From Chloroflexota bacterium (GTDB lineage: Bacteria > Chloroflexota > Limnocylindria > Limnocylindrales > CSP1-4): DNA of 41,680 nt. The notes beneath the pieces were generated by a model that made no database searches, was not told the DNA's origin, and saw only the letters and a program-made list of their open reading frames with translations. A program made the position numbers and the translations under genes. Of the stretch, positions 1-13,936 are shown piece by piece. The DNA is taken from contig JBDTVN010000001.1 of the NCBI GenBank assembly GCA_040007155.1, positions 1 through 41,680 of the forward strand. The letters are read 5' to 3'. Position 1 is the first letter of the stretch. Each line of letters starts with the position of its first letter.

Positions 1-140
1 TCATCGATGCCTGCCGCGAGGCGTCCGACGAGCTTCTCGTCCGAGTCCACGGCTGGGTTGAGGGGCGAGGCAAAGAACGCGAACACCTCGTCCAGCGGGC
101 GAATGACGAGTTGGCTGGCTGAGAGGCGTTGTATGGTCAA
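1..140 (-). CDS. 5' end of an ORF that runs off the left edge (not in the supplied track); function unknown, N-terminus loosely SRPBCC/cyclase-dehydrase-like
   Basis: My own translation of the minus strand from TTG at 140-138 gives MTIQRLSASQLVIRPLDEVFAFFASPLNPAVDSDEKLVGRLAAGID with no stop before position 1. The composition is protein-like rather than Arg/Pro-rich shadow frame. It is divergent from the MerR gene. Confidence 0.3.
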   Translation of the reverse strand, partial: MTIQRLSASQLVIRPLDEVFAFFASPLNPAVDSDEKLVGRLAAGID

Positions 141-254
141 GTGGAACCTCGAAGATTCGCGAAATCGGCGTGGGCTTGTGGAATGTTTGTTCACAGTATG
201 ATGGGCTGGAATTGGGCTTGTCAACCCTTTGTACCTGCTATCGTTGGACACACG

Positions 255-1199
255 ATGTACACAATCAAGCAGGCCGCAGCGAGGTCGGGCGTCCCTGTCC
301 AGCTCCTTCGGGCGTGGGAACGTCGTTATGGGGTTGTCAAGCCGGCACGCACAGACTCGGGTTACCGGCTCTACGACGACCCCGCGATCGACCGCCTGCT
401 GGCGATGCGCCGACTGATCGATGCTGGCTGGGCACCGAGTACAGCGGCAGTTCGCATCCGCGAGCTTGATGACGTCGCCGTTGGCGAACTGGTAGCTGGC
501 GGCCGGGAATCGGAGCAGATCCATGCAGTCGCGTCACGCGCCGGCGCGGCGGAGCTGGCCGAGGCCTTCGTCACCGCGGCGGGCAAACTCGATGAGCCGG
601 CGCTGGAGCAAGTCCTCGACGTCATGTTCTCGCGCGGCTCTTTCGAGCAGGTCGTATCTGACCTGGTAATGCCGGCCCTGGCGGCCCTCGGCGATGCCTG
701 GCAGACCGGTCGCGTTGATGTCGCCGCTGAGCACGCCGCGGCCGGTGCGGTCCAGCGTCGGCTAGGGATGGCTTTCATGGCCGGTGGCCGTCCGGCGCAG
801 GATCGGCCAGTGATCCTGGTCGGGCTGCCTCCGGGCGCACGCCATGATCTCGGCGCGCTGACCTTCGCGACATCTGCCCGTCGGGCGGGGCTGGCCGTGC
901 GCTATCTGGGACCCGACCTGCCACTCCAGGATTGGCTCGACGCCGTCACACGTACGGCGGCTATTGCGGTCGTCATCGGCGCGTTGATTGACTCGGACGT
1001 GGATCCAGCCGAGCGCGTGGCGAAAGCGATTCGAGCCGCCAACCCAAGCATTGTCATCGCCTTCGGCGGGCGTGCCGCGGCATCAGTCGACCCGTCCGAG
1101 GCAGCACCTGTGCTGATCTTGCCCCACGACGTCGCGGCGGCCGTCGACGCAATCCGGGTAGCCCTCCGCGCGAGGGTGGTCGACGCAACTTCCCGCTGA
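255..1199 (+). CDS. MerR-family HTH + cobalamin-binding domain light-responsive regulator (CarH/LitR type)
   Basis: ORF 129-1199. The MerR HTH begins right at internal ATG 255 (MYTIKQAAARSGVPVQLLRAWERRYG...YRLYDD). The C-terminal half carries the CarH signature Wx9EH (AWQTGRVDVAAEH, nt 699-734). It also has the B12 lower-ligand His motif (GARHDLG, His codon 843-845) inside a VILVGLPPG...YLGPDLP Rossmann-like module. Confidence 0.85.
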   Translation: MYTIKQAAARSGVPVQLLRAWERRYGVVKPARTDSGYRLYDDPAIDRLLAMRRLIDAGWAPSTAAVRIRELDDVAVGELVAGGRESEQIHAVASRAGAAELAEAFVTAAGKLDEPALEQVLDVMFSRGSFEQVVSDLVMPALAALGDAWQTGRVDVAAEHAAAGAVQRRLGMAFMAGGRPAQDRPVILVGLPPGARHDLGALTFATSARRAGLAVRYLGPDLPLQDWLDAVTRTAAIAVVIGALIDSDVDPAERVAKAIRAANPSIVIAFGGRAAASVDPSEAAPVLILPHDVAAAVDAIRVALRARVVDATSR

Positions 1200-1200
1200 C

Positions 1201-2025
1201 TCATGCGCCCGGCCTGAGGGTGCCCGAGAACACCTGCCACGCGAGCAACGACTTGGCGATCAGGCTGAAAAGCATGTAGGCGCGCTCGCCGTAAAGGTAA
1301 TCGCTCCAGCGCCCGATCTTGCCGTACTGCAGGACCATGTTGATCGCGAACACGTTGAAGCTGATGAACAGCGACACGTAGATGAAGAACACGAATGAGG
1401 GGATGGCGACGGCACCTGGGGCCGTGGCGGCGGTAACCAGCGCAACGGTAATCACGGCCCACGGGACCACACCCATGATGCAGCCGAAGACGTAGTGCAG
1501 CCACTGCGGTCGTTCGCGGCCCTCGTTGGCCGCCTCCATGCTCCAGCCGAAAAGGATCATTCCGGCGTTAGCGCCGAAGATGGCAATCAGGGTGCCGATC
1601 TCCTGGATCCCGGTCAAGCTGGCGATGACCACGATCATCACGCTCGACGAGAACGAGTACTCGATCCAGCGCGCCGGGTTCTGGCCGCGCGCCAGGTGCC
1701 GCTCGTACCAACCGCGGAATGGGAATGCGACCGCGAAGTGCGCCACGGCGCTGAACAGGAAGAAGAGCGCCACGGCGAAGCCGAGCGGATATTCGAACAG
1801 GGCACGCTGCGCCACCTGGAGAGTCTGGGTCGGCGGGTCGAAGGACAGGTAGGAACTGACTACCGGTGCCGTGGCCAGCGGATTTTTCAGGAATGACGCC
1901 CCGACCATGATCAGAAACTGCACGAAATGGAGCCCCGCCAGGATGACGTTCCAGCGATGAAGCGAGGCGGCCTCGTCGCGCGCGATTGGCTGCGTTATGG
2001 GCATGGCTGATGCGATGGCGGACAT
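1201..2025 (-). CDS. heliorhodopsin (retinal-binding 7-TM photoreceptor, inverted-topology rhodopsin family)
   Basis: ORF 1201-2130, trimmed to ATG 2025, which is preceded by AGGAGAACGT (RBS). It aligns by eye over its full length with heliorhodopsin 48C12-type proteins. Matching blocks are ARWIEYSFSSSVMIV (counter-ion Glu context), AIFGANAGMILFGW, FGCIMGVVPW and GERAYMLFSLIAKSLLAWQVFSGTL (Schiff-base Lys context). The conserved His residues in helices A and B are present (GLHFVQ, AVAHFAV). Confidence 0.9.
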   Translation of the reverse strand: MSAIASAMPITQPIARDEAASLHRWNVILAGLHFVQFLIMVGASFLKNPLATAPVVSSYLSFDPPTQTLQVAQRALFEYPLGFAVALFFLFSAVAHFAVAFPFRGWYERHLARGQNPARWIEYSFSSSVMIVVIASLTGIQEIGTLIAIFGANAGMILFGWSMEAANEGRERPQWLHYVFGCIMGVVPWAVITVALVTAATAPGAVAIPSFVFFIYVSLFISFNVFAINMVLQYGKIGRWSDYLYGERAYMLFSLIAKSLLAWQVFSGTLRPGA

Positions 2026-2033
2026 ACGTTCTC

Positions 2034-3479
2034 CTATTGGGTCTGTATTTGGGCAGCCAGAGCACGTGCTCCAAGCGCGCGCACCATGCCGCGGAAGATC
2101 AACCCGTGAACGGGGTACAGCAGATACCAATAGGCCAGCCCGGGCAGGCCCTTGGGCTCGAAAAAGGCCGTCTGGACCAGCCGACTACGTGCACCGTCGG
2201 GCACAACCTCGTACTGCAGCCAGGCACGGCCGGGCACGCGCATCTCTGCGCGGAGGCGAAGGATCTCCGGCCGCCGCACCTCCTCGACACGCCAGAAGTC
2301 GAGCGCATCGCCCACCCTGAGCCGTTGCGGGTCGCGCCGGCCGAGGCGCATGCCCACGCCGCCGACGGCGAGATCGATCAGCCCACGCAGCCCCCACAGG
2401 GCGTTCGCGTACGCCCAGCCGGATTTGCCGCCGAGGCGTTCGACCTCGGCGAAGACTCGGTCCGGCGAGGCCGCGACCACGATCTCGCGCCGCTCGACAA
2501 TCATCCCTTCGCGCGAACTGAAGGGCAGCAGACTCTGGCGGTCGGGGGCATTGATTGAGTCGAACCACGTCGACTCGACATCGTGGTCGCGAGTGCGATC
2601 GATCGCCTGGCGGACGGCTTCGGCAAAGGGCAGTGGTTTAAGCCCGAAAGCGCTCGCCGGACCAGGATCGCGAACTATGACTTCGTTGCGCAGTCCCTCG
2701 ACCAGCGGCCGCGCCAGGCTGGCCGGCACGGGCGACACCAGACTGACCCAGTATGAGCTGAGCCTGGGCGTCAAGACCGGAACCGGGATCATCAGCCGGC
2801 CCAGACCGCGCTGACGAGCGTAGGCGCGCATCATCTCGCCGTAGGACAGGATGCTGGGGCCGCCAATCTCGACGACGCCGGCTATATCCGGGTGGTCGAG
2901 CGCCCCGACGAGGTAATCGAGCACATCGCTGATTCCGATCGGTTGGCATTTGGTGCGCACCCAGCGCGGCGTGATCATAATCGGCAGCCGCTCGGTCAGG
3001 TAGCGCAGGATCTCGAACGAGGCACTGCCCGATCCGATGATCATGGCCGCCCGGAACTCGGTCACGGGGACGCCCGCCGCGGCCAGCTCGACTCCCGTCT
3101 GGTGCCGGCTGGCCAGGTGGCGCGACAAATCGGCCGAATCCTCGCCCAGCCCGCCAAGGTAGATGATGCGCTTGACGCCGACCCGCGACGCCTCCCTCGC
3201 GAACGTTTGTGCAGCACGCTTGTCGCGCTCGGCAAAGCCGCGCTCGCTGGCGCCCATTGAGTGGGCCAGGTAGTAGGCGATCTCAACGCCGTCAAGCTTG
3301 CCCGCCAGCGTGGACGGATCAAGGAGATCCGCGCCCTTGACCGTGGCGCCCGGGAAGCGTCCCGCCAGGCCGCGCACATCGCGGCTGAGCAGGGTGAGGC
3401 TGTGACCGGCGCGATTCAACCGATCGGCCAGCCGGCTGCCGATGTAGCCGCTCGCACCAGCGATCAGGATGCGGCTCAT
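2034..3479 (-). CDS. NAD(P)-binding atypical SDR / NmrA-like domain fused to a DUF2867-like C-terminal domain (E. coli YbjT-like)
   Basis: The N-terminus MSRILIAGASGYIGSRL is the GxxGxxG Rossmann motif of extended/atypical SDRs. At 481 aa, with a C-terminal ~150 aa (SREGMIVERREIVVAASPDRVFAEVERLGG...FWRVEE), it matches my recollection of YbjT/DUF2867 architecture. Its stop at 2034 lies 8 nt upstream of the heliorhodopsin ATG on the same strand. Confidence 0.8.
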   Translation of the reverse strand: MSRILIAGASGYIGSRLADRLNRAGHSLTLLSRDVRGLAGRFPGATVKGADLLDPSTLAGKLDGVEIAYYLAHSMGASERGFAERDKRAAQTFAREASRVGVKRIIYLGGLGEDSADLSRHLASRHQTGVELAAAGVPVTEFRAAMIIGSGSASFEILRYLTERLPIMITPRWVRTKCQPIGISDVLDYLVGALDHPDIAGVVEIGGPSILSYGEMMRAYARQRGLGRLMIPVPVLTPRLSSYWVSLVSPVPASLARPLVEGLRNEVIVRDPGPASAFGLKPLPFAEAVRQAIDRTRDHDVESTWFDSINAPDRQSLLPFSSREGMIVERREIVVAASPDRVFAEVERLGGKSGWAYANALWGLRGLIDLAVGGVGMRLGRRDPQRLRVGDALDFWRVEEVRRPEILRLRAEMRVPGRAWLQYEVVPDGARSRLVQTAFFEPKGLPGLAYWYLLYPVHGLIFRGMVRALGARALAAQIQTQ

Positions 3480-3497
3480 TGCTCGACCGCCCGATCA

Positions 3498-3530
3498 GTG
3501 TTCATTGTTTGTACCATTCTTGTGCAGGGA
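3498..3530 (-). promoter_or_regulatory. candidate CarH/LitR-type operator (three ACA triplets in exact 11-nt phase)
   Basis: The minus strand reads GCACAAGAATGGTACAAACAATGAACAC. ACA triplets lie at 3523-3521, 3512-3510 and 3501-3499, immediately downstream of the -10 element. This A/T-rich patch stands out in a GC-rich window. Confidence 0.3.
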
Positions 3531-3558
3531 TCGTACGGTTACGCAGGCAAGGCGTCAA
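3530..3558 (-). promoter_or_regulatory. candidate sigma-70-type promoter of the SDR-heliorhodopsin operon
   Basis: On the minus strand: TTGACG (3558-3553), 17 nt spacer, TACGAT (3535-3530). This sits about 50 nt upstream of ATG 3479. Confidence 0.4.
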
Positions 3559-3672
3559 GTGTTTGTAGAATGTCGGGGAAGCGAGCGCGCGCAGGGCTCG
3601 AACTCGCGATCGTGCCCAGCTCAGCCGGATCGGGCTGGCCTTGAGACCCCGGGAGGCATCGCGTACAACCGA

Positions 3673-3992
3673 GGCGCGTTTGCGCGGCGGATCGAAAAAC
3701 GGCATCAGCCCGCCTCGAGCCGAGTCATGTCCAGCCCCAGCATGCCCGCAGCATGAATTCCGAATTGTGTGCCGACCTCGATCAGCCGATCCCACAGTTC
3801 CACCGCCTGCGTCGCATCGACCCACAGCTCGTAGCCCAGGTCGCCGGTGTAGCCGGTGCGGCTGACATCGAGGGCGATCTTGCCCACGTGCGCGGCACGC
3901 CGGCGGTAGTAGGCCAGGTCGGTCCAGTCGGCGCCGGTGAGCGCTGACAGAACGGCGCGTGACTGCGGATTCTGGAGGGCGATAGCGGCGGT
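3673..3992 (-). pseudogene. decayed paralog of the GcvT-family gene at 6056-7252 (5' truncated, internal deletion plus frameshift, stop codon lost)
   Basis: ORF 3705-4100 contains AAIALQNPQSRAVLSALTGADWTDLAYYRRRAAHVGKIALDVSRTGYTGDLGYELWVDATQAVELWDRLIEVG...LDMTRLEAG. This is collinear with AAIALQGPLSRAVLEAS...YYRRRASKVGRIAIDVSRTGYTGDLGYELWVDAGKAIALWDRLVDVG...LDMARLEAG of the intact gene. Directly after RLEAG the frame breaks. In another frame it resumes with PFFDPPRKRA, which is the last 10 aa of the intact protein. Confidence 0.7.
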
Positions 3993-4025
3993 TGCGTGGG
4001 AGCGACATAGCCCCTCTTCATTCCG

Positions 4026-4412
4026 ATGACGACTCGGGCTGCACACGCTGCCAAGGCGCTCAGCGCGGCCCGTCAGCTCATCGCAGCGACAGCCGACCAC
4101 GGCCAGCCTTGGGCACCGGTGGGCGCGGGCATCGTGACCGGCGTCGCTTACGTCGGCGTCACCTCGTCCAGCGACGAGCCGGACGACCTGACCGCGCTGG
4201 GCGATGTGGTCAACACGGCTTCACGGCTGGCGGGCGCGGCCGCGGCTGGGGAGATCCTGGCGAGTCGGCTGACGATTGCCGCGGCCGGTGTCGACGAGAC
4301 CGGACTGGAGCGGCGAATGCTTGCCCTCGGGCAAGGAAGAGCCATTCGCGGCGTTCCTGATTCGGCCGTGAACACGATGATGAGTACCGTCTCGGGCTGG
4401 GCCGCCACCTGA
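4026..4412 (+). pseudogene. 5'-truncated class III adenylate/guanylate cyclase domain remnant
   Basis: The 128-aa ORF holds only the C-terminal half of a cyclase homology domain (GIVTGVAYVGV...LTALGDVVNTASRLAGAAAAGEILAS). The N-terminal half with the metal-binding FxDIxGFT segment is absent. It abuts the truncated 5' end of the GcvT remnant. Confidence 0.55.
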
Positions 4413-4452
4413 TTAGCGTCACACGGCGGCGCTGCTGAACCGTCACCCCGCC

Positions 4453-6045
4453 ATGACGCAGGAACCACCGCCGACTGCAACGAACTTCCCGACGACCTGG
4501 GCAAACCCCGCTTTGGTCGCTCCCCGCTCCATTCCGATGACGGAGCGTATGTCTGACCGCTTGGCAGGCCGCGTCGTCTTGGTCGGGCTTGCCGCGGGCT
4601 TCCTCGCGCAAGTTCTCTTCTTCCACCAGTCGCCCGGCATCAATTGGCCGATCTGGATTTGCGCAGTGATCGGCGCGACGTTGGTGGCGCGACGTTCCAC
4701 AGCAAAACTGGATCGCGCCGATGCCTGGTTGCCAGTGGGCGCAATCGCGTTCGCGGCATTTATCGCGCTGCGCGACGATCCCGGTCTGCTGCTGTTTGAT
4801 TTCCCCGCAAGTGGCGCGCTGACTCTCGCGTCGGTCGTCGCGATTGGTGGCAATCCAATTACCCGCAGTGCCTGGATCACAATCGGTCGCCTGGGAGGAG
4901 CGGCGATCCTCGCGTTCTGGGGTGGTGCGGCCCACGTAATGCACGGCTTTCGTCCGCTGCTCGCTGCGGCTCCCGGTCTCACTGGCTCATCCACGAGCCG
5001 GCGCGTGGTGCGCGGCCTGCTGATCGCATTGCCCCTCGTATTGGCCTTCGTGGTCCTGTTCGCTGCCGCGGATGCCGTCTTTCAGAACCTCCTCCGCAAC
5101 GCCCTCAGCGTCGACGTGAAACTTGATGATTGGGTTGGCCGCGCGACATTCGGCCTGATCGCCGGCTGGCTGTTCGTAGGCACAATGATTGCGGCATGGC
5201 TGTCGCGCGAGCGCTTCCTCGGCGAGCAGCCAGACGCGCCAGTCACGCCGGTCGCGCGGAAGCGCGTACTTTCCGCCATCGAAGCCGCAACGGTGCTCGT
5301 CGTACTCGACGTTCTCTTCGCTATCTTCGTCGTCATCCAGGCGGCGTACCTGTTCCCAGGCGGCGACCCACTCGCGGCGAGCGGCCTGACCTATGCGGAG
5401 TACGCGCGCCGCGGCTTCTTCGAGCTGGTTGTCGTTGCCTTCCTGTCGGGCGCTGTGATCCTGGCGTTCGACTGGCTCGTCGACCGAGTTACCGCCGCAC
5501 AGCGGATGGCGGCTGCAGCTCTGGCGGTTATGACCGGGTTGATTCTCGTGTCCGCCTACGTGCGGCTGTCGCTCTATCAGCAGGCCTATGGCTGGACTGA
5601 GCTACGCCTGTACGTTCTTGCTGCGATCGGCCTTCTGGCGTTCGGGGTCGTGGTCACGCTCGCTGGGATCGGGCTGAAACGGGTTGGCTCGGTCCCCAAG
5701 CTCGTTCTCGCCGCAGGCTTCGTGGTCGCCCTACTGTGCAATGTCATCGGCACACAGGCATTCGTTACGGCGCAGAACCTCGAGCGTGCGGCGAACCCGG
5801 CACTCGTGCCGGCGGGCGGACAGTCAGGTCTGGACGCGAATTATCTCTATGACCTCGGTCCGGATGTCGTTCCGGCGGTGCTCGCGGCACGAAACGGCTT
5901 GGCCGAAGGTGACCGCGAGAGGGTCGACATTTTCCTGGCCGGCACCGCGTCCACCCTGAGGCGCGTGGCCGCCGACACGGGCTGGCCCTCGTGGAACTTG
6001 TCGCGCCAGGCTGCGCTCGACGCCCTGACGGCCGCTGGGTTCTAG
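4453..6045 (+). CDS. polytopic integral membrane protein of unknown function (possibly DUF4153/DUF4173-type)
   Basis: A 530-aa ORF with 10 or more hydrophobic segments (VVLVGLAAGFLAQVLFF, WPIWICAVIGATLVA, LLIALPLVLAFVVLFAA and others) and a soluble-looking C-terminal ~90 aa. The family assignment is from memory only. An alternative start lies at the internal MTERM. Confidence 0.65.
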   Translation: MTQEPPPTATNFPTTWANPALVAPRSIPMTERMSDRLAGRVVLVGLAAGFLAQVLFFHQSPGINWPIWICAVIGATLVARRSTAKLDRADAWLPVGAIAFAAFIALRDDPGLLLFDFPASGALTLASVVAIGGNPITRSAWITIGRLGGAAILAFWGGAAHVMHGFRPLLAAAPGLTGSSTSRRVVRGLLIALPLVLAFVVLFAAADAVFQNLLRNALSVDVKLDDWVGRATFGLIAGWLFVGTMIAAWLSRERFLGEQPDAPVTPVARKRVLSAIEAATVLVVLDVLFAIFVVIQAAYLFPGGDPLAASGLTYAEYARRGFFELVVVAFLSGAVILAFDWLVDRVTAAQRMAAAALAVMTGLILVSAYVRLSLYQQAYGWTELRLYVLAAIGLLAFGVVVTLAGIGLKRVGSVPKLVLAAGFVVALLCNVIGTQAFVTAQNLERAANPALVPAGGQSGLDANYLYDLGPDVVPAVLAARNGLAEGDRERVDIFLAGTASTLRRVAADTGWPSWNLSRQAALDALTAAGF

Positions 6046-6055
6046 CCGCTAGCCG

Positions 6056-7252
6056 CTACGCGCGCTTGCGCGGCGGATCGAAGAAGGGCAGCGGCACGAC
6101 CTGGGCCGCGGCACGGCCGCGGACACCTTCCACGGTCAATTCCAGCGCGAGCTTCGTTCCCGGCGCCGCGTAGGCGGGGGCCACGGATGCCAGCGCGATG
6201 TGCTGCTTCAAAGTTGGACTCCACGAGCCACTCGTCGCCCGGCCGATTTGGCGCCCACCGGCGAACACCGGGCGTTGGTCGCGCCACGTGGCGGCCTCGA
6301 CGTAGATCGGCAGATCCTGCGCCGCGTAGAGCGACTCGATCGCCGGGTAGTCGACAGTGAGGCCGACCAGGCGCCGGGTCGGCCCGCCTGAGGCCACCTC
6401 GGCAGCCAGGGCCCGCTTGCCGACAAAGTCGGTGACCTTGTCCAGGTTCACCAGTCGGTCGAACCCAAGCTCGTAGGGCGAGTAAGACTGCGCTGGGACG
6501 ATGGCGTGGCGGGCCGAGGTGTAATCGACTTCGATCAGGATCAGGCCCGCCTCAAGTCGGGCCATATCCAAAGCACGCATGCCCGCCGGGCGCAGGCCGA
6601 ATGGACGGCCGACGTCCACCAATCGATCCCACAGGGCGATCGCCTTACCGGCATCGACCCAGAGCTCATAGCCCAGGTCGCCGGTGTAGCCCGTGCGCGA
6701 CACATCGATGGCGATGCGCCCAACTTTCGACGCACGGCGGCGGTAGTAGCCCACGCCCGACCAATCCTCTTTGGTCGATGCCTCGAGGACGGCGCGCGAC
6801 AGTGGACCCTGCAACGCGATCGCTGCACCGTCCTCGCTAACGTCATCAATCGTGACGTTCAACGCACGCGCGTTGAGCTCGAACCAGCGCAGGTGCGGGT
6901 CGGCGCTGGTCCAGCGGAACGAGTCGTCATCATCGAGCCGCGCGATCGTGCCGTCGTCGATGACCTTGCCGTGGTCGTCGCACCACGGCGTGTAGATGAC
7001 TTGGCCCGGCTTGATCTTGGTCGCGTCACGAGTGATAACGCGGTCGATCAACTGCACCGCGTCCGGCCCGGAGATGCGCGTCTTGTACAGCGGCGAGACG
7101 TCAATCAGCACCGCCGCGTGGCGGATGCCGACGTACTCGTGGATGTGGCGGTAGTCGTACGCGCCGGCGGCGAGATAGCCCGACCACTCGCGCCAGTCGC
7201 GCTTGCGGTTAAGCGGCGCCGTGCGTTCGTCGAGCGGGGTGCCGATGCTCAT
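6056..7252 (-). CDS. GcvT-family folate-dependent aminomethyltransferase-like protein
   Basis: 398 aa. It contains VGIRHAAVLIDVSPLYKTRISGPDA, ALQGPLSRAVL and RTGYTGDLGYELW, which are typical glycine-cleavage T-protein family blocks. Confidence 0.85.
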   Translation of the reverse strand: MSIGTPLDERTAPLNRKRDWREWSGYLAAGAYDYRHIHEYVGIRHAAVLIDVSPLYKTRISGPDAVQLIDRVITRDATKIKPGQVIYTPWCDDHGKVIDDGTIARLDDDDSFRWTSADPHLRWFELNARALNVTIDDVSEDGAAIALQGPLSRAVLEASTKEDWSGVGYYRRRASKVGRIAIDVSRTGYTGDLGYELWVDAGKAIALWDRLVDVGRPFGLRPAGMRALDMARLEAGLILIEVDYTSARHAIVPAQSYSPYELGFDRLVNLDKVTDFVGKRALAAEVASGGPTRRLVGLTVDYPAIESLYAAQDLPIYVEAATWRDQRPVFAGGRQIGRATSGSWSPTLKQHIALASVAPAYAAPGTKLALELTVEGVRGRAAAQVVPLPFFDPPRKRA

Positions 7253-7272: not shown

Positions 7273-8847
7273 GTGGTCTCTGGCGCTGTCAATCGTTACG
7301 ACGCGATCGTCATCGGCGGTGGCCATAACGGGCTGACCGCGGCCGCCTATCTGGCGCGCGCCGGCAAGCGCGTCGTCGTGCTGGAGAAGCGCAAGATCCT
7401 GGGTGGCGCCACCGTCACAGAGGAGATCTACCCGGGCTTCAAGTTCAGCGTCGCGTCGTACGTGGTCAGTCTGCTGCGGCCGGAGATCATCCGCGAGCTG
7501 GACCTGGTGCGCCACGGCCTGACCGTCCTGCCAGTCGATGGCACGCTGACGCCGCTCGACGACGATTACCTGTGGCGCGTTGATGACCACGGCGCGACCG
7601 TGCGCGAGCTGCGGCGCTGGTCGAAGCGCGACGCCGAGGCGTACGAGGAGTACGCGGTCCTGATGGCCGAGATGGCGCGCTTCGTCAAACCGTTGCTGGG
7701 CGAGACGCCCGGGCGCGTTGGTTCAAACCCGTGGGCGGCGCTGGCCAAGAGATTTGCCGCGCTGCCCGAGAGCCAGCAGACGACCTTCATCCAACTTCTG
7801 ACCATGTCGAGCGCGGACTTCGTCAGCCAGTGGTTCGAGACCGAGCCGCTGCGAGCGACGCTGTGCGCGAGTGGGATCATCGGCACGTTCCTTGGACCGC
7901 GCTCGCCTGGTTCGGCCTATGTCCTGTTGCACCACTACATGGGCGAGGTTGACGGCGAGTACCGCGCGTGGGGCCTGCCGGTCGGCGGAACAGGTGCCAT
8001 CAGCGGCGCGATCGGGGCCGCGGCGCGCGAATTCGGAGCCGAGATCCGCACCGACTCTGCCGTCGCCCAGGTCACGACGCGCGGCGGCAAGACGAGCGGC
8101 GTGTTGCTGGAGTCGGGCGAGGAGATTCGCGCACCGGTGGTGCTGTCGAGTGCCGACGTCCGCGTGACCCTGGGTCGATTGTTGGAGTCGGGCACGCTGG
8201 GTGAGGCGGATGCCGCCGCGGTGAGTCGGTACAAGTTCCGCGGCTCGTCGGCCAAGGTCAACTTCGCGTTGTCGGGATTGCCGACTTTCACGTGTCTGCC
8301 TGCCGGAACCACCGATGTTTACCGCGGCATGGTGTCGATCTCGCCGTCGATCGACTACATCGAGCGCGCCTACGACGATGCCGTGGACGGCCGATTCTCG
8401 CGCGAGCCTTACGTCGACATGGGCTTCCCATCCTTCGTCGATCCGTCGGTCGCGCCGCCCGGCCAGCACGTCATGGCCTGTTTCGTCCAGTACGCGCCAT
8501 ATGAGCTGGCCGAAGGGACGTGGGACGAGCAACGCGAAGCGCTGGGCGACACGGTTCAGAAGACGATCGCGCGCTATGCGCCAGATCTGAGCGCAAAAGT
8601 GCTGTACCGCCAGACGGTGACGCCGCTCGACATCGAGCGGACATTCGGCCTGACCGAGGGCAACATCTTCCAGGGCGAGTTGCTGCTCGAGCAGCTGTTC
8701 AGCGGTCGGCCCTTGCCAGGAGCGGGGTACGCCACGCCCGTGCCCGGGCTGTGGCTGTGCGGCTCGTCGACGCATCCCGGCGGCGCGATCAGCGGCGCCC
8801 CCGGACGCAACGCGGCGCGCGAAGTCCTGAAAAGCATGCGCCGATGA
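7273..8847 (+). CDS. FAD/NAD(P)-dependent oxidoreductase, phytoene-desaturase (CrtI)-related family
   Basis: GTG start. The N-terminal dinucleotide-binding motif is YDAIVIGGGHNGLTAAAYLARAGKRVVVLEKRKILGGA. The C-terminal LWLCGSSTHPGGAISGAPG is typical of the family. Confidence 0.85.
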   Translation: MVSGAVNRYDAIVIGGGHNGLTAAAYLARAGKRVVVLEKRKILGGATVTEEIYPGFKFSVASYVVSLLRPEIIRELDLVRHGLTVLPVDGTLTPLDDDYLWRVDDHGATVRELRRWSKRDAEAYEEYAVLMAEMARFVKPLLGETPGRVGSNPWAALAKRFAALPESQQTTFIQLLTMSSADFVSQWFETEPLRATLCASGIIGTFLGPRSPGSAYVLLHHYMGEVDGEYRAWGLPVGGTGAISGAIGAAAREFGAEIRTDSAVAQVTTRGGKTSGVLLESGEEIRAPVVLSSADVRVTLGRLLESGTLGEADAAAVSRYKFRGSSAKVNFALSGLPTFTCLPAGTTDVYRGMVSISPSIDYIERAYDDAVDGRFSREPYVDMGFPSFVDPSVAPPGQHVMACFVQYAPYELAEGTWDEQREALGDTVQKTIARYAPDLSAKVLYRQTVTPLDIERTFGLTEGNIFQGELLLEQLFSGRPLPGAGYATPVPGLWLCGSSTHPGGAISGAPGRNAAREVLKSMRR

Positions 8848-10406
8848 AGCGTTTCGACGCGATTGTTATTGGCGCTGGTCACAACGGGCTCGTGTGTGCC
8901 GCGTACGTGGGTTTGGCGGGACTGCGCGCCCTTGTCCTGGAGCGGCGCGACGTCGTGGGCGGCATGGCCGAAACGTCGGAGATCCTGCCTGGAGTACGCG
9001 TCCCGACTTTGGCGCACACGGTGGGCCGGCTGTCGGCGAAGGTCGGGCGCGACCTGCGGTTGCGGTCGCACGGGTTGGCGTTCATTGAGCCGAGCGTTCG
9101 CGTTTTTGCGCCGCGACCAGATGGCGGCGCGACTGTTTTGTGGGGTGACGCGAACAGGACCGTCGCCGGCCTTGGGGCTGACGGCACGGCTTATGCCGCG
9201 GCTGATCAGACGGTGCGCGAGTGGGCGAGCGCCCTGGCTGAGCTCATGGCGCGCGCTCCGATCGACCTCGCCGCGCCGTCTGTGGGCGACATATTCAGCG
9301 GGCTGCGACTGCGCGCGCGAACGCCGTCGGCGGACCTTTTGCGAGTCATGCCGATGGCCGTGCGCGACCTCGTCGGCGAGTGGTTCAAATCTGATGCGTT
9401 GCAGGCCGCAGTGGCCGCGCGCGGCGTGCTGCTGAGCGGTCTGGCGCCGCGCATGCCTGGGACGGCTGGCGTCCTATTGACTGACCTTGCCGGCAACGAC
9501 GGAGGGCTGGCTGGTCAGACCGTATTTGCGCGTGGTGGCCCGGGCGCCGTGAGCGCGGCGTTGGCTGCGGCGGTTCGCGCGGCGGGTGGCCAGATCCGTT
9601 TGGGCGCGGCGGTGACCAAGGTGCGTCGCGACGGCGAGCAGGCGCGCGGCGTGACCTTGGAAAGCGGCGAGGAGATAGACGCGCCGATCGTCGTTTCCAA
9701 CCTAGATCCGCGCACCACGTTGCTTGACCTGGTCGATCCCGAGGTGCTCGGCCCACGACTGGGTTGGCGGGCAGCCAACATCCGCGCCCGCGGAGTTACG
9801 GCGAAGGTCAACCTGGCGCTGAGTGACCTACCGGCGTTCGCGGCAACCCGTGGTGACGCGCAACTTCTCAAGGGCCGCGTCCTGATCGCGCCGTCGATGC
9901 GCTACCTCGACCTTGCCATGCGGCCCGCGAAGTTCGGGGCGATGGCCGAGCAACCGCTGCTGGAGCTGACGATCCCCAGCCTGTCCGACCCGAGCCTCGT
10001 CGCGCCCATCGGCCGCGGCAAGGCAGGCAAGGTCAAACACGTGATGAGCGTCATCGTCCAGGCGGTGCCCTACACATCGCGCGAAATCGGCGACGTGGTC
10101 ATCAGCACGCTGGAGGAGTACGCGCCCGGCGTCGGTGCCCTCGTGATCGAACGTCAGGTGATCACGCCGCGCGACATCGAACGCGACTACGGCGCAAGTG
10201 GCGGCCATCCCATGCACGCGGAGGTGGCGCTCGACCAGTTCTACGCCTGGCGGCCGCTCCACGGCTATGGCCGGTACCGCATGCCGTTGCGCGGGCTATA
10301 CCTGGCCGGCGCCGGCGCCCACCCCGGTGGTGGTCTGACCGGGTTGCCCGGCCGCCTCGCAGCCCAGGCAGTGCTCGACGACCGTGGTCGTAAGGTAAAG
10401 GCGTGA
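8844..10406 (+). CDS. second FAD/NAD(P)-dependent oxidoreductase, CrtI-related family
   Basis: ORF 8520-10406, trimmed to ATG 8844 (MKRFDAIVIGAGHNGLVCAAYVGLAGLRALVLERRDVVGG). The ATGA overlaps the upstream stop at 8845-8847. The C-terminus reads LYLAGAGAHPGGGLTGLPG. Confidence 0.85.
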   Translation: MKRFDAIVIGAGHNGLVCAAYVGLAGLRALVLERRDVVGGMAETSEILPGVRVPTLAHTVGRLSAKVGRDLRLRSHGLAFIEPSVRVFAPRPDGGATVLWGDANRTVAGLGADGTAYAAADQTVREWASALAELMARAPIDLAAPSVGDIFSGLRLRARTPSADLLRVMPMAVRDLVGEWFKSDALQAAVAARGVLLSGLAPRMPGTAGVLLTDLAGNDGGLAGQTVFARGGPGAVSAALAAAVRAAGGQIRLGAAVTKVRRDGEQARGVTLESGEEIDAPIVVSNLDPRTTLLDLVDPEVLGPRLGWRAANIRARGVTAKVNLALSDLPAFAATRGDAQLLKGRVLIAPSMRYLDLAMRPAKFGAMAEQPLLELTIPSLSDPSLVAPIGRGKAGKVKHVMSVIVQAVPYTSREIGDVVISTLEEYAPGVGALVIERQVITPRDIERDYGASGGHPMHAEVALDQFYAWRPLHGYGRYRMPLRGLYLAGAGAHPGGGLTGLPGRLAAQAVLDDRGRKVKA

Positions 10407-13400
10407 TCTGCTCGAACTGCGGTTCAGAAAACACGCCTGGCGCCAAGTTCTGCAACGAGTGCGGCGCGACGCTCAGTGCGGGCTGCCCCAACTGTGGCGC
10501 CACCAACAAGCCTGGCGCCAAGTTCTGCAATGAGTGCGGCACGACTCTTGGTGCCGGCTCAGCCGCCGCAACTGGACGGCCCGCCGCCAGTTCCAGCCAA
10601 CACACCGCGCCCGTCGCCGAGCGACGTCTTGTCACGGTCCTGTTCGCGGACATCGTCGGCTTCACGCCGTTCGCCGAGGACAAGGACGCGGAGGAAGTCC
10701 GCGAAACCTTGTCGCGCTACTTCGATATGTGCGCAGACATCGTTGCTCGCTACGGCGGCACCGTCGAGAAGTTCATCGGCGACGCCGTGATGGCGGTGTG
10801 GGGCGCACCGGTCGCGTTCGAGGACGACGCTGAGCGCGCGGTACGTGCAGCGCTTGAGCTGGTCGCGGCCGTGCCCGCCCTAGGCCCGGGCATACAGGCA
10901 AGGGGCGGCGTGCTGACCGGTGAAGCAGCGGTGACGCTCGGCGCGACGAACCAGGGAATGGTCGCGGGCGACATCGTCAATACCGCCGCTCGTCTGCAGT
11001 CGGTCGCGCCGCCGGGGATGGTGCTGGTCGGCGAGGCCACCATGCGCGCAACGAGCGGCTCGGTCATCTTCGAAGAGGCCACCGAGCAGCTGCTCAAGGG
11101 CAAACAGTCGCCCGTCATGTCCTGGCGCGCGGCACGGGTCGTGGCCGAGCGCGGCGGGCGCAACCGCTCGGACGCCTTGGAAGCACCGTTCGTCGGCAGG
11201 TCAGATGAGCTTCGCCTCCTGAAAGACCTGTTCCACGCCACCGGTCGCGAGAGGCGCATCCGCCTCGTCTCGCTCATGGGCCCCGGCGGTATCGGCAAGT
11301 CGCGACTCGCGTGGGAGTTCCTGAAGTACGTCGACGGCCTGGTCGAGACGACCTACTGGCACGACGGCCGCTCCCCGGCGTACGGCGAGGGCGTCACATT
11401 CTGGGCACTGGGCGAGATGATCCGCGGCCGCTGTGGCCTGACGGAAAGCGACGACGAAGAGACCACGCGCGCCAAGGTCGCGCAGCAGGTGCGCCAGTGG
11501 GTGACCGATCCGGATGAAATTGATTGGATCGAGAAGGCGCTGCTGACGTTGCTCGGCATCGAGTCGGGCATGGCCGCGGAGCAACTGTTCGGCGCCTGGC
11601 GCACATTCTTCGAGCGCATCGCCCAGGTGGGCACGGTGACGCTCGTCTTCGAAGACCTCCATCACGCCGACTCGGGCCTGCTGGACTTCATCGACCACAT
11701 GCTCGATTGGACGCGCGGCCTACCGATTTACGTCATCACCCTGGCCCGACCCGATCTGCTCGATCGAAGGCCGGATTGGGGTGCGGGCAAGCGCAACTTC
11801 ACCTCGCAGTACCTCGAGCCGCTCGACCAGCCGGAGATGCGCGAGCTTCTCGCGGGGCTGGTGCCCGGGCTGCCCGAGGAGGCCGCCGTGAGCATCGTCG
11901 GCCGCGCCGACGGCATCCCGCTCTATGCGGTCGAGACCGTGCGGTCGCTTGTTGCCGATGGCCGGCTCAAAAAAGAAGACGGCGTCTACGTGCCGGTGGG
12001 CGACCTGACCAACCTGGCTGTACCGGAGACGTTGACCGCGCTGATCTCATCGCGCCTCGACGCGCTCGATCCGGCCGACCGATCCCTGGTACACGACGCC
12101 TCCGTCCTGGGCCAGTCGTTCAGCGCGCAGGCGCTCGCCGCCATCAGCGGGGTCGACTCGGACGAGCTTACGCGGCGGCTGACCGGTCTGGTCCGGCGCG
12201 AGCTGCTGACCCGCCAGGCCGACTCACGCTCGGCCGAGATCGGTCAGTACGTATTTGTCCAGGCGCTCATTCGCGAAGTCGCTTACAACACGCTCGCCAG
12301 GAAGGACCGCAAGGCGCGCCACCTCGCGGCGGCCCGCTTCTTCGAGCAGCTCGGCAGCGATGAGCTGGCCAGCGCCCTCGCCGGGCACTATCTCGCGGCT
12401 TACGAGAACGCGCCCGAAGGCGCAGAGCAGGACGCGCTTGGCGCCCAGGCGCGCGTCGCCCTGAAGGCCGCGGCCGAACGGGCCGCCCTACTTGGCGGCT
12501 ACGACCAGGCGGTGACGTTCCTGCAGCAGGCACTCAAGGTCACGACGCAGCCGTCTGACCGCGCCGAAATCCTTGACCGCGCGAGCGAATGGGCCAGCAC
12601 CGCCGCGCAGCATGTTTTGGCGGCCGATCTCGAGCGCGAGGCGATTGCCATCTATCGCGAGCTGGGCGACAGGGTTGGCGCAGCGCGCACCACCGCGGCC
12701 CTGGGCTGGCGGCTGCTCAACGCGCACCTCGACAAGGACGCTCTATCCGTCCTGGAGCCGGGGCTTGAGGAATTCCTGGACCTTAACGACGATCTTGTGC
12801 TAGCGGAACTCAAGACCAACCTGTCGCGGGCGTACAACCAGTTCGCGCGCGAGCAGGGCCAAGCCAAGGCATTAGCGTTGGCCGATGAAGCTCTCGTCGT
12901 GGCCGAGCGCACCAACCATCCGCTGCTACTGGTCAGATCGCTGCTCAACAAGGGCGCTGCGCTGGGAACGACGGGCCGCCTACGCGAGGCGATCGCCCTC
13001 ATGCGCGCCGGCGAAGACATTGCGCGCGAACACAATCTAACGGAGCCCCTTCTGGGTTCGTTGTTGCTGCGCGGTTACTACCTGGGAGAGGTGAATAACG
13101 ATCAGGCGCGACAGTGCTTCGTCGACGGCCTCGCGCTTGCCCGCCGCGTTGGGCATCGCAGCTTTGCGCGCGAGTTTGTGAATAACATTGGGTACACGAG
13201 CTTCTTGACCGGCGAGTGGGATTCGGGCTTGGCCGAGATGGAAGGCGTTCTGGCCGAGGACGTGCCTACGAGCGGGCGCATCTGGCTGTTGAGCAACGCG
13301 CTGATCATCCACGTGTCGCGCGGCGAGGACATCTCGGCGAGGCTGATCGAGCTGGAGGAACTTGCCAAGCAGGTAGTAGATACGCACGTGGCCATCGCTC

Positions 13401-13936
13401 CTCTCGACACGCTGGCGAATCTGGCCCAGGCCGAGGGACGCCTCGACGATGCGCAGCGTTTCTGGTTGGAGGTTGTCGAGAACTGGTCGAGCCAGGCTCC
13501 GGCGTCCTACTATCAGGCGGCGCGCCCGGCTCTGTGGTCGCGCGACATCGACGCGGTGCGACGCTACTTCGAGGGCCTGGAGCAGACCGGCGTCCACGGG
13601 CCGGTCGTAGAAGCGCGGCGCAATACTCTGCGGGCCGGGATAGCGGCACTTGAAGGTAGGTCGCGCGAGGCACTGGCGATCTACAAGGAAGCGCTCGCGA
13701 GCTGGCGCGACCTCAAGGTCGTTTGGGAGGAGGCCCTGACCGGCCTGGACATGGCCACGGTGCTCGATCCAGCCGACCCGGCGGTCGCGGCTGTCATCCG
13801 CTCGACGCGCGAGATCCTGACTCGCCTGGACGCGAGGCCTTACCTCGAAAAGTTGGAGGCCGCCGCAGGCCGCGCGAAACCGCAGATGGCGGCCGCCGCG
13901 CGACCCGTCGAATCTGGGGTAGCGGAGACCGCTTAG
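10403..13936 (+). CDS. multidomain signalling protein: double zinc ribbon + class III adenylate/guanylate cyclase + P-loop NTPase + TPR-like repeats
   Basis: The GTG start overlaps the upstream TGA (GTGA). The N-terminus has CSNCG..FCNECG and CPNCG..FCNECG. The cyclase domain reads RRLVTVLFADIVGFTPF...EKFIGDAVMAVWG...GDIVNTAARLQ. Walker A is LMGPGGIGKSRLA and Walker B-like is VTLVFEDLHHAD. A long helical-repeat C-terminus follows. Confidence 0.9.
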   Translation: MICSNCGSENTPGAKFCNECGATLSAGCPNCGATNKPGAKFCNECGTTLGAGSAAATGRPAASSSQHTAPVAERRLVTVLFADIVGFTPFAEDKDAEEVRETLSRYFDMCADIVARYGGTVEKFIGDAVMAVWGAPVAFEDDAERAVRAALELVAAVPALGPGIQARGGVLTGEAAVTLGATNQGMVAGDIVNTAARLQSVAPPGMVLVGEATMRATSGSVIFEEATEQLLKGKQSPVMSWRAARVVAERGGRNRSDALEAPFVGRSDELRLLKDLFHATGRERRIRLVSLMGPGGIGKSRLAWEFLKYVDGLVETTYWHDGRSPAYGEGVTFWALGEMIRGRCGLTESDDEETTRAKVAQQVRQWVTDPDEIDWIEKALLTLLGIESGMAAEQLFGAWRTFFERIAQVGTVTLVFEDLHHADSGLLDFIDHMLDWTRGLPIYVITLARPDLLDRRPDWGAGKRNFTSQYLEPLDQPEMRELLAGLVPGLPEEAAVSIVGRADGIPLYAVETVRSLVADGRLKKEDGVYVPVGDLTNLAVPETLTALISSRLDALDPADRSLVHDASVLGQSFSAQALAAISGVDSDELTRRLTGLVRRELLTRQADSRSAEIGQYVFVQALIREVAYNTLARKDRKARHLAAARFFEQLGSDELASALAGHYLAAYENAPEGAEQDALGAQARVALKAAAERAALLGGYDQAVTFLQQALKVTTQPSDRAEILDRASEWASTAAQHVLAADLEREAIAIYRELGDRVGAARTTAALGWRLLNAHLDKDALSVLEPGLEEFLDLNDDLVLAELKTNLSRAYNQFAREQGQAKALALADEALVVAERTNHPLLLVRSLLNKGAALGTTGRLREAIALMRAGEDIAREHNLTEPLLGSLLLRGYYLGEVNNDQARQCFVDGLALARRVGHRSFAREFVNNIGYTSFLTGEWDSGLAEMEGVLAEDVPTSGRIWLLSNALIIHVSRGEDISARLIELEELAKQVVDTHVAIAPLDTLANLAQAEGRLDDAQRFWLEVVENWSSQAPASYYQAARPALWSRDIDAVRRYFEGLEQTGVHGPVVEARRNTLRAGIAALEGRSREALAIYKEALASWRDLKVVWEEALTGLDMATVLDPADPAVAAVIRSTREILTRLDARPYLEKLEAAAGRAKPQMAAAARPVESGVAETA
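10436..10543 (+). repeat. intragenic tandem duplication encoding the two zinc-ribbon knuckles
   Basis: cctggcgccaagttctgcaacgagtgcggcgcgac (from 10436) recurs 75 nt later as cctggcgccaagttctgcaatgagtgcggcacgac (from 10511). Only two mismatches are visible. Confidence 0.8.

Follow-up and report, generated by a model that had tools for sequence, protein, structure and literature searches.

Two kinds of photoreceptor frame the locus described here. CarH, known from Thermus thermophilus, Myxococcus xanthus and Bacillus megaterium, and the class I LitR proteins are built from a MerR domain, a bundle of four helices and a B12 domain with Rossmann fold, while the heliorhodopsins (HeRs) are retinal proteins whose role is largely open and for which only three partners have been shown experimentally. 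Representatives of both are encoded next to each other at one end of a 41,680-nucleotide stretch of DNA from a Chloroflexota bacterium (contig JBDTVN010000001.1 of assembly GCA_040007155.1), hereafter called the window, which is a complete contig of a Limnocylindria-like metagenome-assembled genome (MAG) from soil. A regulator gene, litR, converges there on a HeR gene, which in turn is preceded by a gene for a short-chain dehydrogenase/reductase (SDR) fused to a DUF2867 domain. The locus is predicted to form part of a LitR/CarH light regulon that counts another photoreceptor, one based on retinal, among its cargo; that it belongs to a regulon of this type in Limnocylindria-like Chloroflexota, with HeR among the targets, is considered probable.

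The regulator resembles the described CarH and class I LitR proteins in its domains, in its Wx9EH cap, axial His and GxxW/EH/GxxH/GxxxP signature, in the predicted tandem 11-bp TnnACA operators that overlap a sigma-A-type promoter, and in its probable autoregulation; photolyase and lipid photoprotection genes also lie nearby in the window's relatives. Unlike in those systems, the predicted targets are HeR and atypical SDR fusions rather than carotenoid genes, the B12 motif carries Ala and Gly across the clade, the score lies far below the NCBIfam CarH cut-off, and the protein is known here from its sequence. The described HeR systems, AbHeR with glutamine synthetase, TfHeR with photolyase and OcHeR with the OmrDE ABC transporter, likewise join a HeR to an operon partner (a predicted one in the window), and the same three partner families recur around the HeRs of this clade. 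The candidate partner in the window differs in being an SDR+DUF2867 fusion that lacks the catalytic dyad. Cho et al. (2024) sorted 448 HeRs according to their operon neighbours, the ten frequent ones including 'MerR family regulator' and 'SDR family oxidoreductase', and neither the SDR nor the MerR group co-occurred with other grouped genes; the MerR proteins were not identified as B12 photoreceptors and operators were not described. Chazan et al. reported cobalamin-binding neighbours near proton pumps as well, and a scarcity of blh both around HeRs and in the genomes that encode them; they suggested connections with oxidative stress and with the remodelling of lipids. Cobalamin-binding, MerR and SDR genes as neighbours of HeR are already known in this form, as domain statistics. 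In the searchable literature no paper was found on MerR proteins as LitR/CarH photoreceptors on HeR promoters, on operators there, or on DUF2867 together with HeR, and the operator-level link, the regulatory reading and the permuted fusions described below appear to be new, as computational results.

The regulator (Table 1) contains the Pfam domains MerR_1 (54.5 bits), MerR (43.2), B12-binding_2 (40.2) and B12-binding (37.9), all above their cut-offs. Its closest solved structure is that of T. thermophilus CarH (TtCarH; 3whp/5c8d, E 2e-30), with whose DNA-binding domain residues 1-69 align. The Wx9EH motif, DAWQTGRVDVAAEH, matches EAWHRGEIGVAEEH of the Thermus protein column for column, and this cap (AWQTGRVDVAAEH against AWHRGEIGVAEEH in 3whp/5c8d) is kept in 24 of 24 aligned HeR-linked homologues. 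The lower axial His lies within GARHDLGA, in register with GERHEIGA of TtCarH. The signature of light-responsive cobalamin-binding domains has been defined as GxxW, EH, GxxH and GxxxP (PMC11796333) and reads GDAW, EH, GARH and GPDLP in the translation. An initial annotation, made from the letters of the window, had assigned a MerR helix-turn-helix (HTH), the Wx9EH motif and the axial His to this gene, and both the Pfam domains and the alignment with TtCarH agree with it. Profile searches likewise bear out the identities that it gave to all three proteins of the cluster, and these family matches are not due to chance since their E-values range from 1e-10 to 1e-90.

The HeR matches PF18761 with 297 bits over positions 1-242 of 242 and NCBIfam NF038020 with 301 bits against a cut-off of 100. 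Alignment with HeR 48C12 (6su3) places E122 on the counter-ion E107 in transmembrane helix (TM) 3 and K258 on the Schiff-base K241 in TM7, while H33 and H96 correspond to H23 and H80; K258 and E122 are invariant among 19 relatives. The closest relative, 91% identical, is encoded by a Chloroflexota MAG (locus L001), and the nearest relatives in general come from Chloroflexota and Limnocylindria MAGs. Profiles and alignment thus bear out the claim of a full-length HeR with Lys and Glu in their functional positions. The stop codons of litR (TGA, 1197-1199) and HeR (TGA on the reverse complement, 1201-1203) are 1 nt apart, as had been noted, and because of this spacing there is no space for terminators at 1197-1203, so that the litR and SDR-HeR transcripts must stop within or enter the opposing coding region. 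The two genes are convergent in L001 as well, about 380 nt apart; the convergent geometry is not conserved across relatives.

Upstream of HeR the stop codon of the SDR gene (TAG, 2036-2034) is separated from the HeR start codon (ATG, 2025-2023) by 8 nt. The ribosome-binding site (RBS) AGGAG at 2035-2031 overlaps the SDR stop codon and ends 5 nt ahead of the HeR ATG. A scan of positions 1-4500 found no terminator-like site within this junction; one such site inside the SDR gene (2182-2166) was taken as chance, 2 sites having been found against 2.2 expected. The shared strand, the short gap, the RBS, the lack of a terminator and the single upstream promoter predict a two-gene operon headed by the SDR-DUF2867 gene, the layout already read by the initial annotation.

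The evidence that ties this operon to the regulator lies in its promoter. A consensus scan for sigma-70-like promoters in positions 1-4500 returned only two, both of which coincide with predicted operator sites. The leftward promoter (TTGACA 224-219, 18-nt spacer, CATACT 200-195, minus strand) faces a gene termed type B, which begins at the left end of the contig and is divergent from litR. The SDR-HeR promoter (-35 TTGACG 3558-3553, 17-nt spacer, -10 TACGAT 3535-3530, minus strand) lies 50 nt upstream of the SDR start. For litR itself a near-leaderless promoter with TATCGT at 238-243 is probable.

The operator of Thermus CarH consists of 11-bp direct repeats with the consensus nAnnTnnACAn (PMC8156234). 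A matrix was trained by expectation-maximisation on 42 promoter regions, taken only from other genomes, that lie upstream of the regulator, HeR or an SRPBCC-SDR gene, and yielded a 24-nt motif, cngACnTTgnACAAAgncTngACA, with two TnnACA cores 11 bp apart, TnnACA being the core of the published consensus. Both strands of the window were scanned with this matrix and 200 simulated windows served as the null. The seven best matches all fall within 177-261 and 3499-3576 (Table 1), and the best match elsewhere in the window scores 10.6 bits. The two top scores exceed the maximum of each simulated window; these maxima have a mean of 12.9 bits, a 95th percentile of 16.6 and a largest value of 21.7. A search for three nAnnTnnACAn repeats with at most 3 mismatches gave a single match in the window, at 3499-3529 on the minus strand, against 0.07 expected, and three ACA in 11-bp phase occur only once, at the same place, against 0.06 expected. 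TnnACA-N5-TnnACA is found only at 177-193 (-) and 245-261 (+), both upstream of the regulator, against 0.21 expected. With predicted sites on the -35 element and just past the -10 element, the SDR-HeR promoter is therefore bracketed by CarH-type sites. Sites in the regulator's own control region are what is expected of an autoregulated LitR/CarH protein, and autoregulation is probable. The B12-dependent control of the SDR-HeR operon that had been suggested from the gene arrangement thus gains direct sequence support, in the form of predicted operators on its promoter and on that of the regulator and nowhere else in 41.7 kb.

The link is not confined to the window. A scan with a HeR alignment, limited to one genome per species, gave 80 HeR loci, nearly all from Chloroflexota, and in 25 of them HeR has a MerR-B12 homologue no more than 6 kb away (42-55% identity for full-length copies), so that the linkage of regulator and HeR recurs. 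The layout takes at least five forms: litR and HeR converging like those of the window (L001), litR downstream of HeR on the same strand (L002), litR divergent from HeR (L077), litR divergent from an SRPBCC-SDR/HeR operon (ten loci), and litR convergent with one intervening gene (ten loci). The closest relatives on long contigs, L081 and L082, whose HeRs are 86% and 84% identical to that of the window, have litR and HeR on one strand, 11-14 nt apart, and divergent from an SRPBCC-SDR gene. The co-directional pairs occupy 9012-10819 in L081, 9051-10819 in L082 and 6001-7824 in L002, with gaps of 11-60 nt, and in these three loci photoreceptor-repressor and rhodopsin would be co-transcribed and autoregulated. 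AdoCbl riboswitches (RF01482, 60-61 bits) on the plus strand precede a BtuF/FecCD/ABC transporter in L081 (4515-4652) and L082 (4451-4598). As riboswitch and BtuFCD-like transporter adjoin the SRPBCC-SDR/litR/HeR cluster in both, B12 uptake is encoded beside the B12 photoreceptor there.

A scan of 805 kb from the 80 loci gave matches to the learned motif of at least 17 bits in 30 of them, solely in intergenic positions beside litR, HeR, the SRPBCC-SDR gene or a UfaD-like operon. Six of the loci with matches had not contributed to the training. Five of these (L040, L044, L046, L048 and L079) have no litR in their flanks and carry the site on a promoter of the TTGACA type, 50-150 nt upstream of HeR. 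The sixth, L027, has its sites in the intergenic region next to litR, upstream of a gene for a small secreted protein which is followed by HeR. Since operators stand upstream of HeR in loci without a nearby regulator, HeR appears to be a regular member of the LitR/CarH regulon, whether or not the regulator is adjacent. Small secreted proteins are the first gene past the operator in several further loci, between litR and the SRPBCC-SDR gene (L012, L034 and L039, as in L027) and also in L060, L068 and L061. These inserts encode a 104-aa Cys-containing protein, a repeat protein of about 280 aa or a fasciclin-domain protein.

The recurrent neighbours of HeR in these loci are glutamine synthetase (13 loci), CFA-synthase-like proteins (12), DUF1365 (10), FAD amine-oxidase-like proteins (10) and photolyase (9). 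DUF1365 corresponds to UfaO and the FAD desaturase to UfaD, enzymes of furan-fatty-acid synthesis encoded in the Rhodobacter operon RSP1091-1087, which singlet oxygen induces (PMC7380195). Ten loci (L003, L004, L005, L009, L015, L021, L028, L033, L037 and L042) have an operon made up of SRPBCC, UfaD-like, DUF1365 (UfaO-like) and CFA-synthase-like genes, accompanied by photolyase or not, that diverges from HeR, and each of them has a highly conserved TGTAnA-N5-TGTAnA between the two transcription units (within about 2000-6000). The likeness to the Rhodobacter regulon, which is under sigmaE-ChrR, and to photolyase and lipid genes known to be controlled by LitR lies in the gene content: the relatives' promoter of the same type drives SRPBCC, UfaD-like, DUF1365 and CFA-synthase-like genes, with photolyase nearby. 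Unlike in Rhodobacter, the predicted control is by a B12 repressor and not by an extracytoplasmic function (ECF) sigma/anti-sigma pair, and the window lacks these lipid genes, its promoter directly driving SDR-DUF2867 and HeR. An Actinomycetes MAG (L059) encodes two HeR paralogues, at 6001-6813 (+) and 11000-11800 (-), 52% and 37% identical to the HeR of the window, which flank glutamine synthetase genes with a MerR-B12 gene upstream.

Several observations weigh against placing the locus in a LitR/CarH regulon. Matches in the training loci arise by construction, and the independent tests are the window, the six untrained loci and the scan with the literature consensus. The learned motif includes a TTGACA-like end, and because of this part of its score could reflect promoter elements instead of an operator. 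No such operator is found at the SDR-DUF2867/HeR pairs of L025, L053, L066, L102 and L158. The regulator itself departs from the classic B12 motif, ExHx2G-x41-SxV/T-x22-27-GG (PMC8156234): its spacing is kept, as are the His, the Gly and the GG, Glu is replaced by Ala, and SxV/T reads GxL, with Gly for Ser. Both deviations are common to all 24 HeR-linked homologues aligned, and they are therefore a property of the clade and not a decay of this gene. The NCBIfam CarH equivalog model NF052513 gives 140.5 bits against a cut-off of 400, and the protein is accordingly described as a predicted relative within the CarH family and not as a CarH equivalog or orthologue.

Table 1. Features of the window (strand given relative to the contig)
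Feature	Positions	Strand	Basis and remarks
Type B gene, SRPBCC(-SDR), 5' end	3-140	-	Divergent from litR; TTG start 140-138; runs off the contig end
Divergent control region, type B gene/litR	141-254	.	Promoter scan and matrix; sites 177-200 (-), 219-242 (-), 238-261 (+)
Matrix match, 22.9 bits	177-200	-	litR/type B divergent region
Matrix match, 19.4 bits	219-242	-	litR/type B divergent region
Matrix match, 15.1 bits	238-261	+	litR/type B divergent region
litR/carH-like gene, 314 aa	255-1199	+	MerR HTH and predicted AdoCbl-binding photoreceptor module; Pfam, TtCarH alignment
Heliorhodopsin gene, 274 aa	1201-2025	-	Distal in predicted operon; Pfam, NCBIfam, 48C12 alignment
SDR-HeR junction	2026-2035	-	8-nt gap and RBS; sequence read
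SDR-DUF2867 gene, 481 aa	2034-3479	-	Atypical extended SDR fusion, first gene of predicted operon; Pfam; SDR ~1-300, DUF2867 ~329-465
Predicted operator B	3499-3529	-	Three tandem 11-bp direct repeats, TCCCTGCACAA GAATGGTACAA ACAATGAACAC; between -10 hexamer and SDR start codon
Three overlapping matrix matches, 12.0-14.5 bits	3499-3533	both	Between -10 and SDR start
SDR-HeR promoter and predicted operator A	3530-3576	-	Operator A, CCGACATTCTACAAACACTTGACG, 3576-3553, overlaps -35; top matrix match
Matrix match, 26.3 bits	3553-3576	-	Overlaps -35 of SDR-HeR promoter
gcvT-like remnant	3673-4100	-	Internally deleted copy; 68% identity with residues 139-236 of the intact gene, whose final 11 codons are also present
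Cyclase remnant	4026-4412	+	Nucleotide cyclase domain, C-terminal half; 34% identity with the 1177-aa protein
DUF4153 membrane protein, 530 aa	4453-6045	+	Between the gene remnants and the GcvT-like gene
GcvT-like gene, intact	6056-7252		
FAD protein, CrtI/CrtO-family-like	7273-8847	+	Below family cut-offs
FAD protein, CrtI/CrtO-family-like	~8860-10406	+	Below family cut-offs
1177-aa protein	10403-13936	+	Double zinc ribbon, adenylate/guanylate cyclase, AAA_16 ATPase, TPR repeats

The first gene of the predicted operon encodes a protein with an N-terminal NAD_binding_10/Epimerase/NmrA region and a C-terminal DUF2867 domain (PF11066, 112 bits, residues 329-465), and its homologues carry the JGI name 'YbjT (DUF2867 family)'. 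The NAD(P) motif GASGYIG (residues 8-14) is intact and invariant in homologues, and binding of NAD(P) is likely. The catalytic YxxxK is replaced by HLASR (H121-L-A-S-R125), which aligns with RYAASK of 9g83_P, an NDUFA9-like subunit of complex I; as H121 and R125 are invariant in 28 homologues and the same in every HeR-linked copy, the protein is classed as an atypical SDR. Dehydrogenase chemistry is uncertain, and catalysis could proceed via other residues. The AlphaFold2 model has a pLDDT of 61.9 and a pTM of 0.48, a low confidence that stems from the shallow alignment (72-84% identity). The Rossmann part is well predicted, and the DUF2867 region is modelled with low confidence (pLDDT about 50-88 in 10-residue blocks) as beta-alpha-alpha-beta4-long alpha. 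Because of this low confidence the best Foldseek matches, to NDUFA9-like subunits and extended SDRs, are limited to the SDR domain. The Polyketide_cyc2 (SRPBCC) profile reaches 18.8 bits on the DUF2867 region, below its cut-off of 27.4, and with this sub-threshold match and a low-confidence model the SRPBCC nature of DUF2867 is tentative. The protein shares with the YbjT/NDUFA9-like atypical SDRs the N-terminal NAD(P)-binding extended-SDR fold, its best sequence and fold matches being NDUFA9-like, and with Escherichia coli YbjT the C-terminal DUF2867. Unlike it, NDUFA9-like proteins keep YxxxK and have no DUF2867 domain, and YbjT has no known function, so that the comparison predicts little.

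Pairing of this protein with HeR is found elsewhere and is sporadic. On the HeR side an SDR-DUF2867 gene adjoins HeR in three or four of the 80 loci (L001, L025 and L053, with an SDR-only version in L066), in both gene orders and with gaps of about 9-25 nt. The SDR side comprised 80 metagenomic loci with homologues 46-77% identical, with flanks of up to 4 kb and many contigs of only 2-5 kb; HeR lies within the fetched flanks in three of them (L095, L102 and L158). The pairing is thus apparently real and recurrent and not unique to this genome, although the loci are few and most homologues are unlinked to HeR. The recurrent neighbours of SDR-DUF2867, which are photolyase, YbgA-like DUF1722, GTP cyclohydrolase I, DUF1295, fasciclin, the UfaD-like cluster and occasionally a MerR-B12 gene, look like a light or UV-stress set. 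Two homologues, 75-76% identical, on megabase contigs (L163 and L164) stand alone in unrelated contexts without an operator. The proposal that all SDR-DUF2867 genes are LitR targets was rejected on account of these two and of L025, L053, L066, L102 and L158, none of which has an operator.

In this clade the gene found most often directly upstream of HeR encodes a different fusion, which had been overlooked. In 12 of the 80 HeR loci (L007, L012, L034, L035, L039, L043, L060, L061, L067, L068, L075 and L078) this position is taken by a protein of 465-500 aa in which an SRPBCC domain (Polyketide_cyc2) comes first and NAD_binding_10/Epimerase second, the reverse of the SDR-DUF2867 order. Its catalytic Tyr is replaced by Trp (WFRAK instead of YxxxK), and some of these genes overlap HeR by 4 bp. 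The same permuted fusion is divergent from litR in L081 (7442-8899) and L082 (7469-8938) and apparently also in the window, where its start at the left end had likewise gone unnoticed. The translation of 140-3, LTIQRLSASQLVIRPLDEVFAFFASPLN, matches residues 1-28 of an SRPBCC+SDR protein of 485 aa in L081, whose gene is divergent from litR, with 68% identity; the similarity ends abruptly after residue 28 (about nt 57) in all frames, which could be an assembly artefact of the contig end or a disrupted gene. In the ten convergent-type loci a stand-alone SRPBCC gene heads the lipid operon divergent from HeR. Two fusions of the same two folds and a free SRPBCC protein near HeR are at most a hint, if the strongest one, of a functional link beyond co-regulation.

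The arrangement in the window can be related to those of its neighbours. Its SDR-HeR promoter shares homology with the promoter, likewise bearing an operator, that heads the SRPBCC-UfaD-like-DUF1365-CMAS operon of L081, L003 and L098, and the alignment with L081 extends into flanking sequence. L001 has the order CMAS, SDR-DUF2867 and HeR followed by convergent litR, and the metagenomic loci L097 and L098 have UfaD-like, DUF1365, CMAS and SDR-DUF2867 followed by convergent photolyase. The simplest reading is that an ancestral litR-HeR operon converged on a lipid operon ending in SDR-DUF2867, that HeR was then inverted onto the end of the lipid operon in the lineage of the window and L001, and that the window later lost the upstream lipid genes. 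Remnants of a gcvT-like gene and of a cyclase gene upstream of the SDR-HeR promoter (Table 1) look like scars of rearrangement. HeR stands under an operator-bearing promoter in both states, which therefore argues for selection on regulation and not on a particular neighbour. Since L081 and L082 have a litR-HeR operon without an adjoining SDR-DUF2867 gene, the pairing in the window looks like regulon clustering after local rearrangement and not like a fixed pair of sensor and effector.

From these data B12 binding, a light response, repression, co-transcription and the action of HeR once made may be inferred, and they would combine as follows. In the dark the MerR-B12 protein would bind adenosylcobalamin and oligomerise, and the oligomer would occupy the tandem 11-bp TnnACA repeats in the divergent region shared with the SRPBCC-SDR gene (141-261) as well as the two predicted sites on the SDR-DUF2867/HeR promoter, one over the -35 element and the three-repeat site just past the -10 element, where the bound regulator would block RNA polymerase. 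UV-to-green light would photolyse the Co-C bond, the oligomer would dissociate and both transcription units would be derepressed. Because derepression would depend on light, HeR would be synthesised only once light has been seen, together with the putative NAD(P)-binding/lipid-binding fusion protein and, in relatives, with photolyase and UfaD/UfaO-like lipid-modifying genes. HeR could then act as a second-tier membrane light sensor in a photoprotection and membrane-lipid response. A bolder version of this scheme is a cascade of two photoreceptors, in which the irreversible B12 switch licenses HeR and the slow photocycle of HeR controls, by contact, an atypical SDR/SRPBCC fusion of either domain order that binds a lipid or retinoid. 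Such a cascade is regarded as rather unlikely; if it were true, HeR signalling in bacteria without blh would be coupled either to a remodelling of membrane lipids in the light or to the supply of HeR's own chromophore.

The initial annotation went further on one point and took the SDR-DUF2867 protein for a candidate effector enzyme of HeR. A dedicated effector that HeR would bind and whose redox step on a retinoid, quinone or lipid it would gate in the light, with the B12 regulator only timing its expression, would be in keeping with the tight 8-nt coupling in the window, with the adjacency of the two genes in L001 (SDR then HeR) and, reversed, in L025, L053 and L095, with their proximity in L102 (divergent) and L158 (convergent), and with the permuted SRPBCC+SDR fusion directly upstream of HeR in other loci; published HeRs moreover control their operon neighbours glutamine synthetase, photolyase and ABC transporter. 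The catalytic Tyr/Lys is, however, an invariant His/Arg in the window family and the Tyr a Trp in the permuted fusion, few SDR-DUF2867 loci have HeR in their (often short) flanks, photolyase, YbgA-like, GTP cyclohydrolase I, DUF1295 and UfaD/UfaO-like genes are commoner neighbours, homologues of high identity stand alone, and the HeR orthologues closest on long contigs (84-86% identical) lack an adjoining SDR-DUF2867 gene. The identity of the protein stands, its role as an enzyme or effector is weakened, and the dedicated-effector reading appears unlikely. Alternatively the fusions of both kinds might handle the chromophore in organisms without blh, their SRPBCC pocket binding a retinal, retinol or apocarotenoid molecule that is then handed to apo-HeR or interconverted. 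Hydrophobic ligands are bound by SRPBCC domains, the retinol dehydrogenases belong to the SDRs, and HeR is paired with the same two folds in two different domain orders. As the initial annotation had stated, blh, crtB and crtY are not found in the window, where Pfam and NCBIfam scans covered the large open reading frames, and blh is scarce around HeRs in general (Chazan et al.). Against a chromophore role stand the loss of the catalytic dyad in both fusions, the many family members without HeR and the sub-threshold profile match and low-confidence model behind DUF2867 as an SRPBCC domain, and the idea is held to be very doubtful.

Of a different kind is the proposal that the adjacency is incidental, the regulator controlling only itself and its divergent gene and the SDR-HeR pair being expressed independently of light and B12. 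The tail-to-tail geometry with 1 nt between the genes provides no shared promoter, the promoters being 3.3 kb apart, the region bears rearrangement scars (the gcvT and cyclase fragments), and cobalamin-binding neighbours near proton pumps, hence not specific to HeR (Chazan et al.), would all fit. Yet the only operator matches outside the litR region are those on the SDR-HeR promoter itself, linkage of litR and HeR is kept through at least five arrangements, and operators stand directly upstream of HeR in untrained loci, which leaves little probability for mere coincidence of position. Regulation of HeR by the LitR/CarH-type protein is thus preferred: the half of the earlier interpretation in which a B12 switch turns on HeR is well grounded in sequence, and the half in which the SDR is its effector enzyme is weakened.

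The remainder of the window is housekeeping in character and encodes SurE, TrpRS, biotin ligase, acetyl-CoA carboxylase, FabF/H/G, sulfotransferases and glycosyltransferases. The two tandem CrtI/CrtO-like FAD proteins are syntenic with L081 and L082 and give no evidence for retinal synthesis. As a retinal source they are unsupported, the CrtO model giving 256 and 224 bits against a cut-off of 1000 and a cleavage dioxygenase being absent. An Rfam scan of the window gave no match at threshold, the AdoCbl riboswitches being found only in relatives. The 1177-aa protein, encoded 7 kb away from the light cluster, is a large protein of signalling type, and the DUF4153 gene is not found at the corresponding position in L081 and L082.

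Concrete tests of the predicted circuit could draw on its short operator fragments, its soluble regulator and its two candidate partners. It would show, in a natural setting, a photoreceptor that gates expression of a second one with a different chromophore, which is of relevance to the logic of light-response circuits and to optogenetic design. For the organisms themselves it would mean that synthesis of HeR requires both light and a supply of B12, and that HeR appears in the defined company of photolyase, UfaD/UfaO-like lipid enzymes and putatively lipid-binding fusions.

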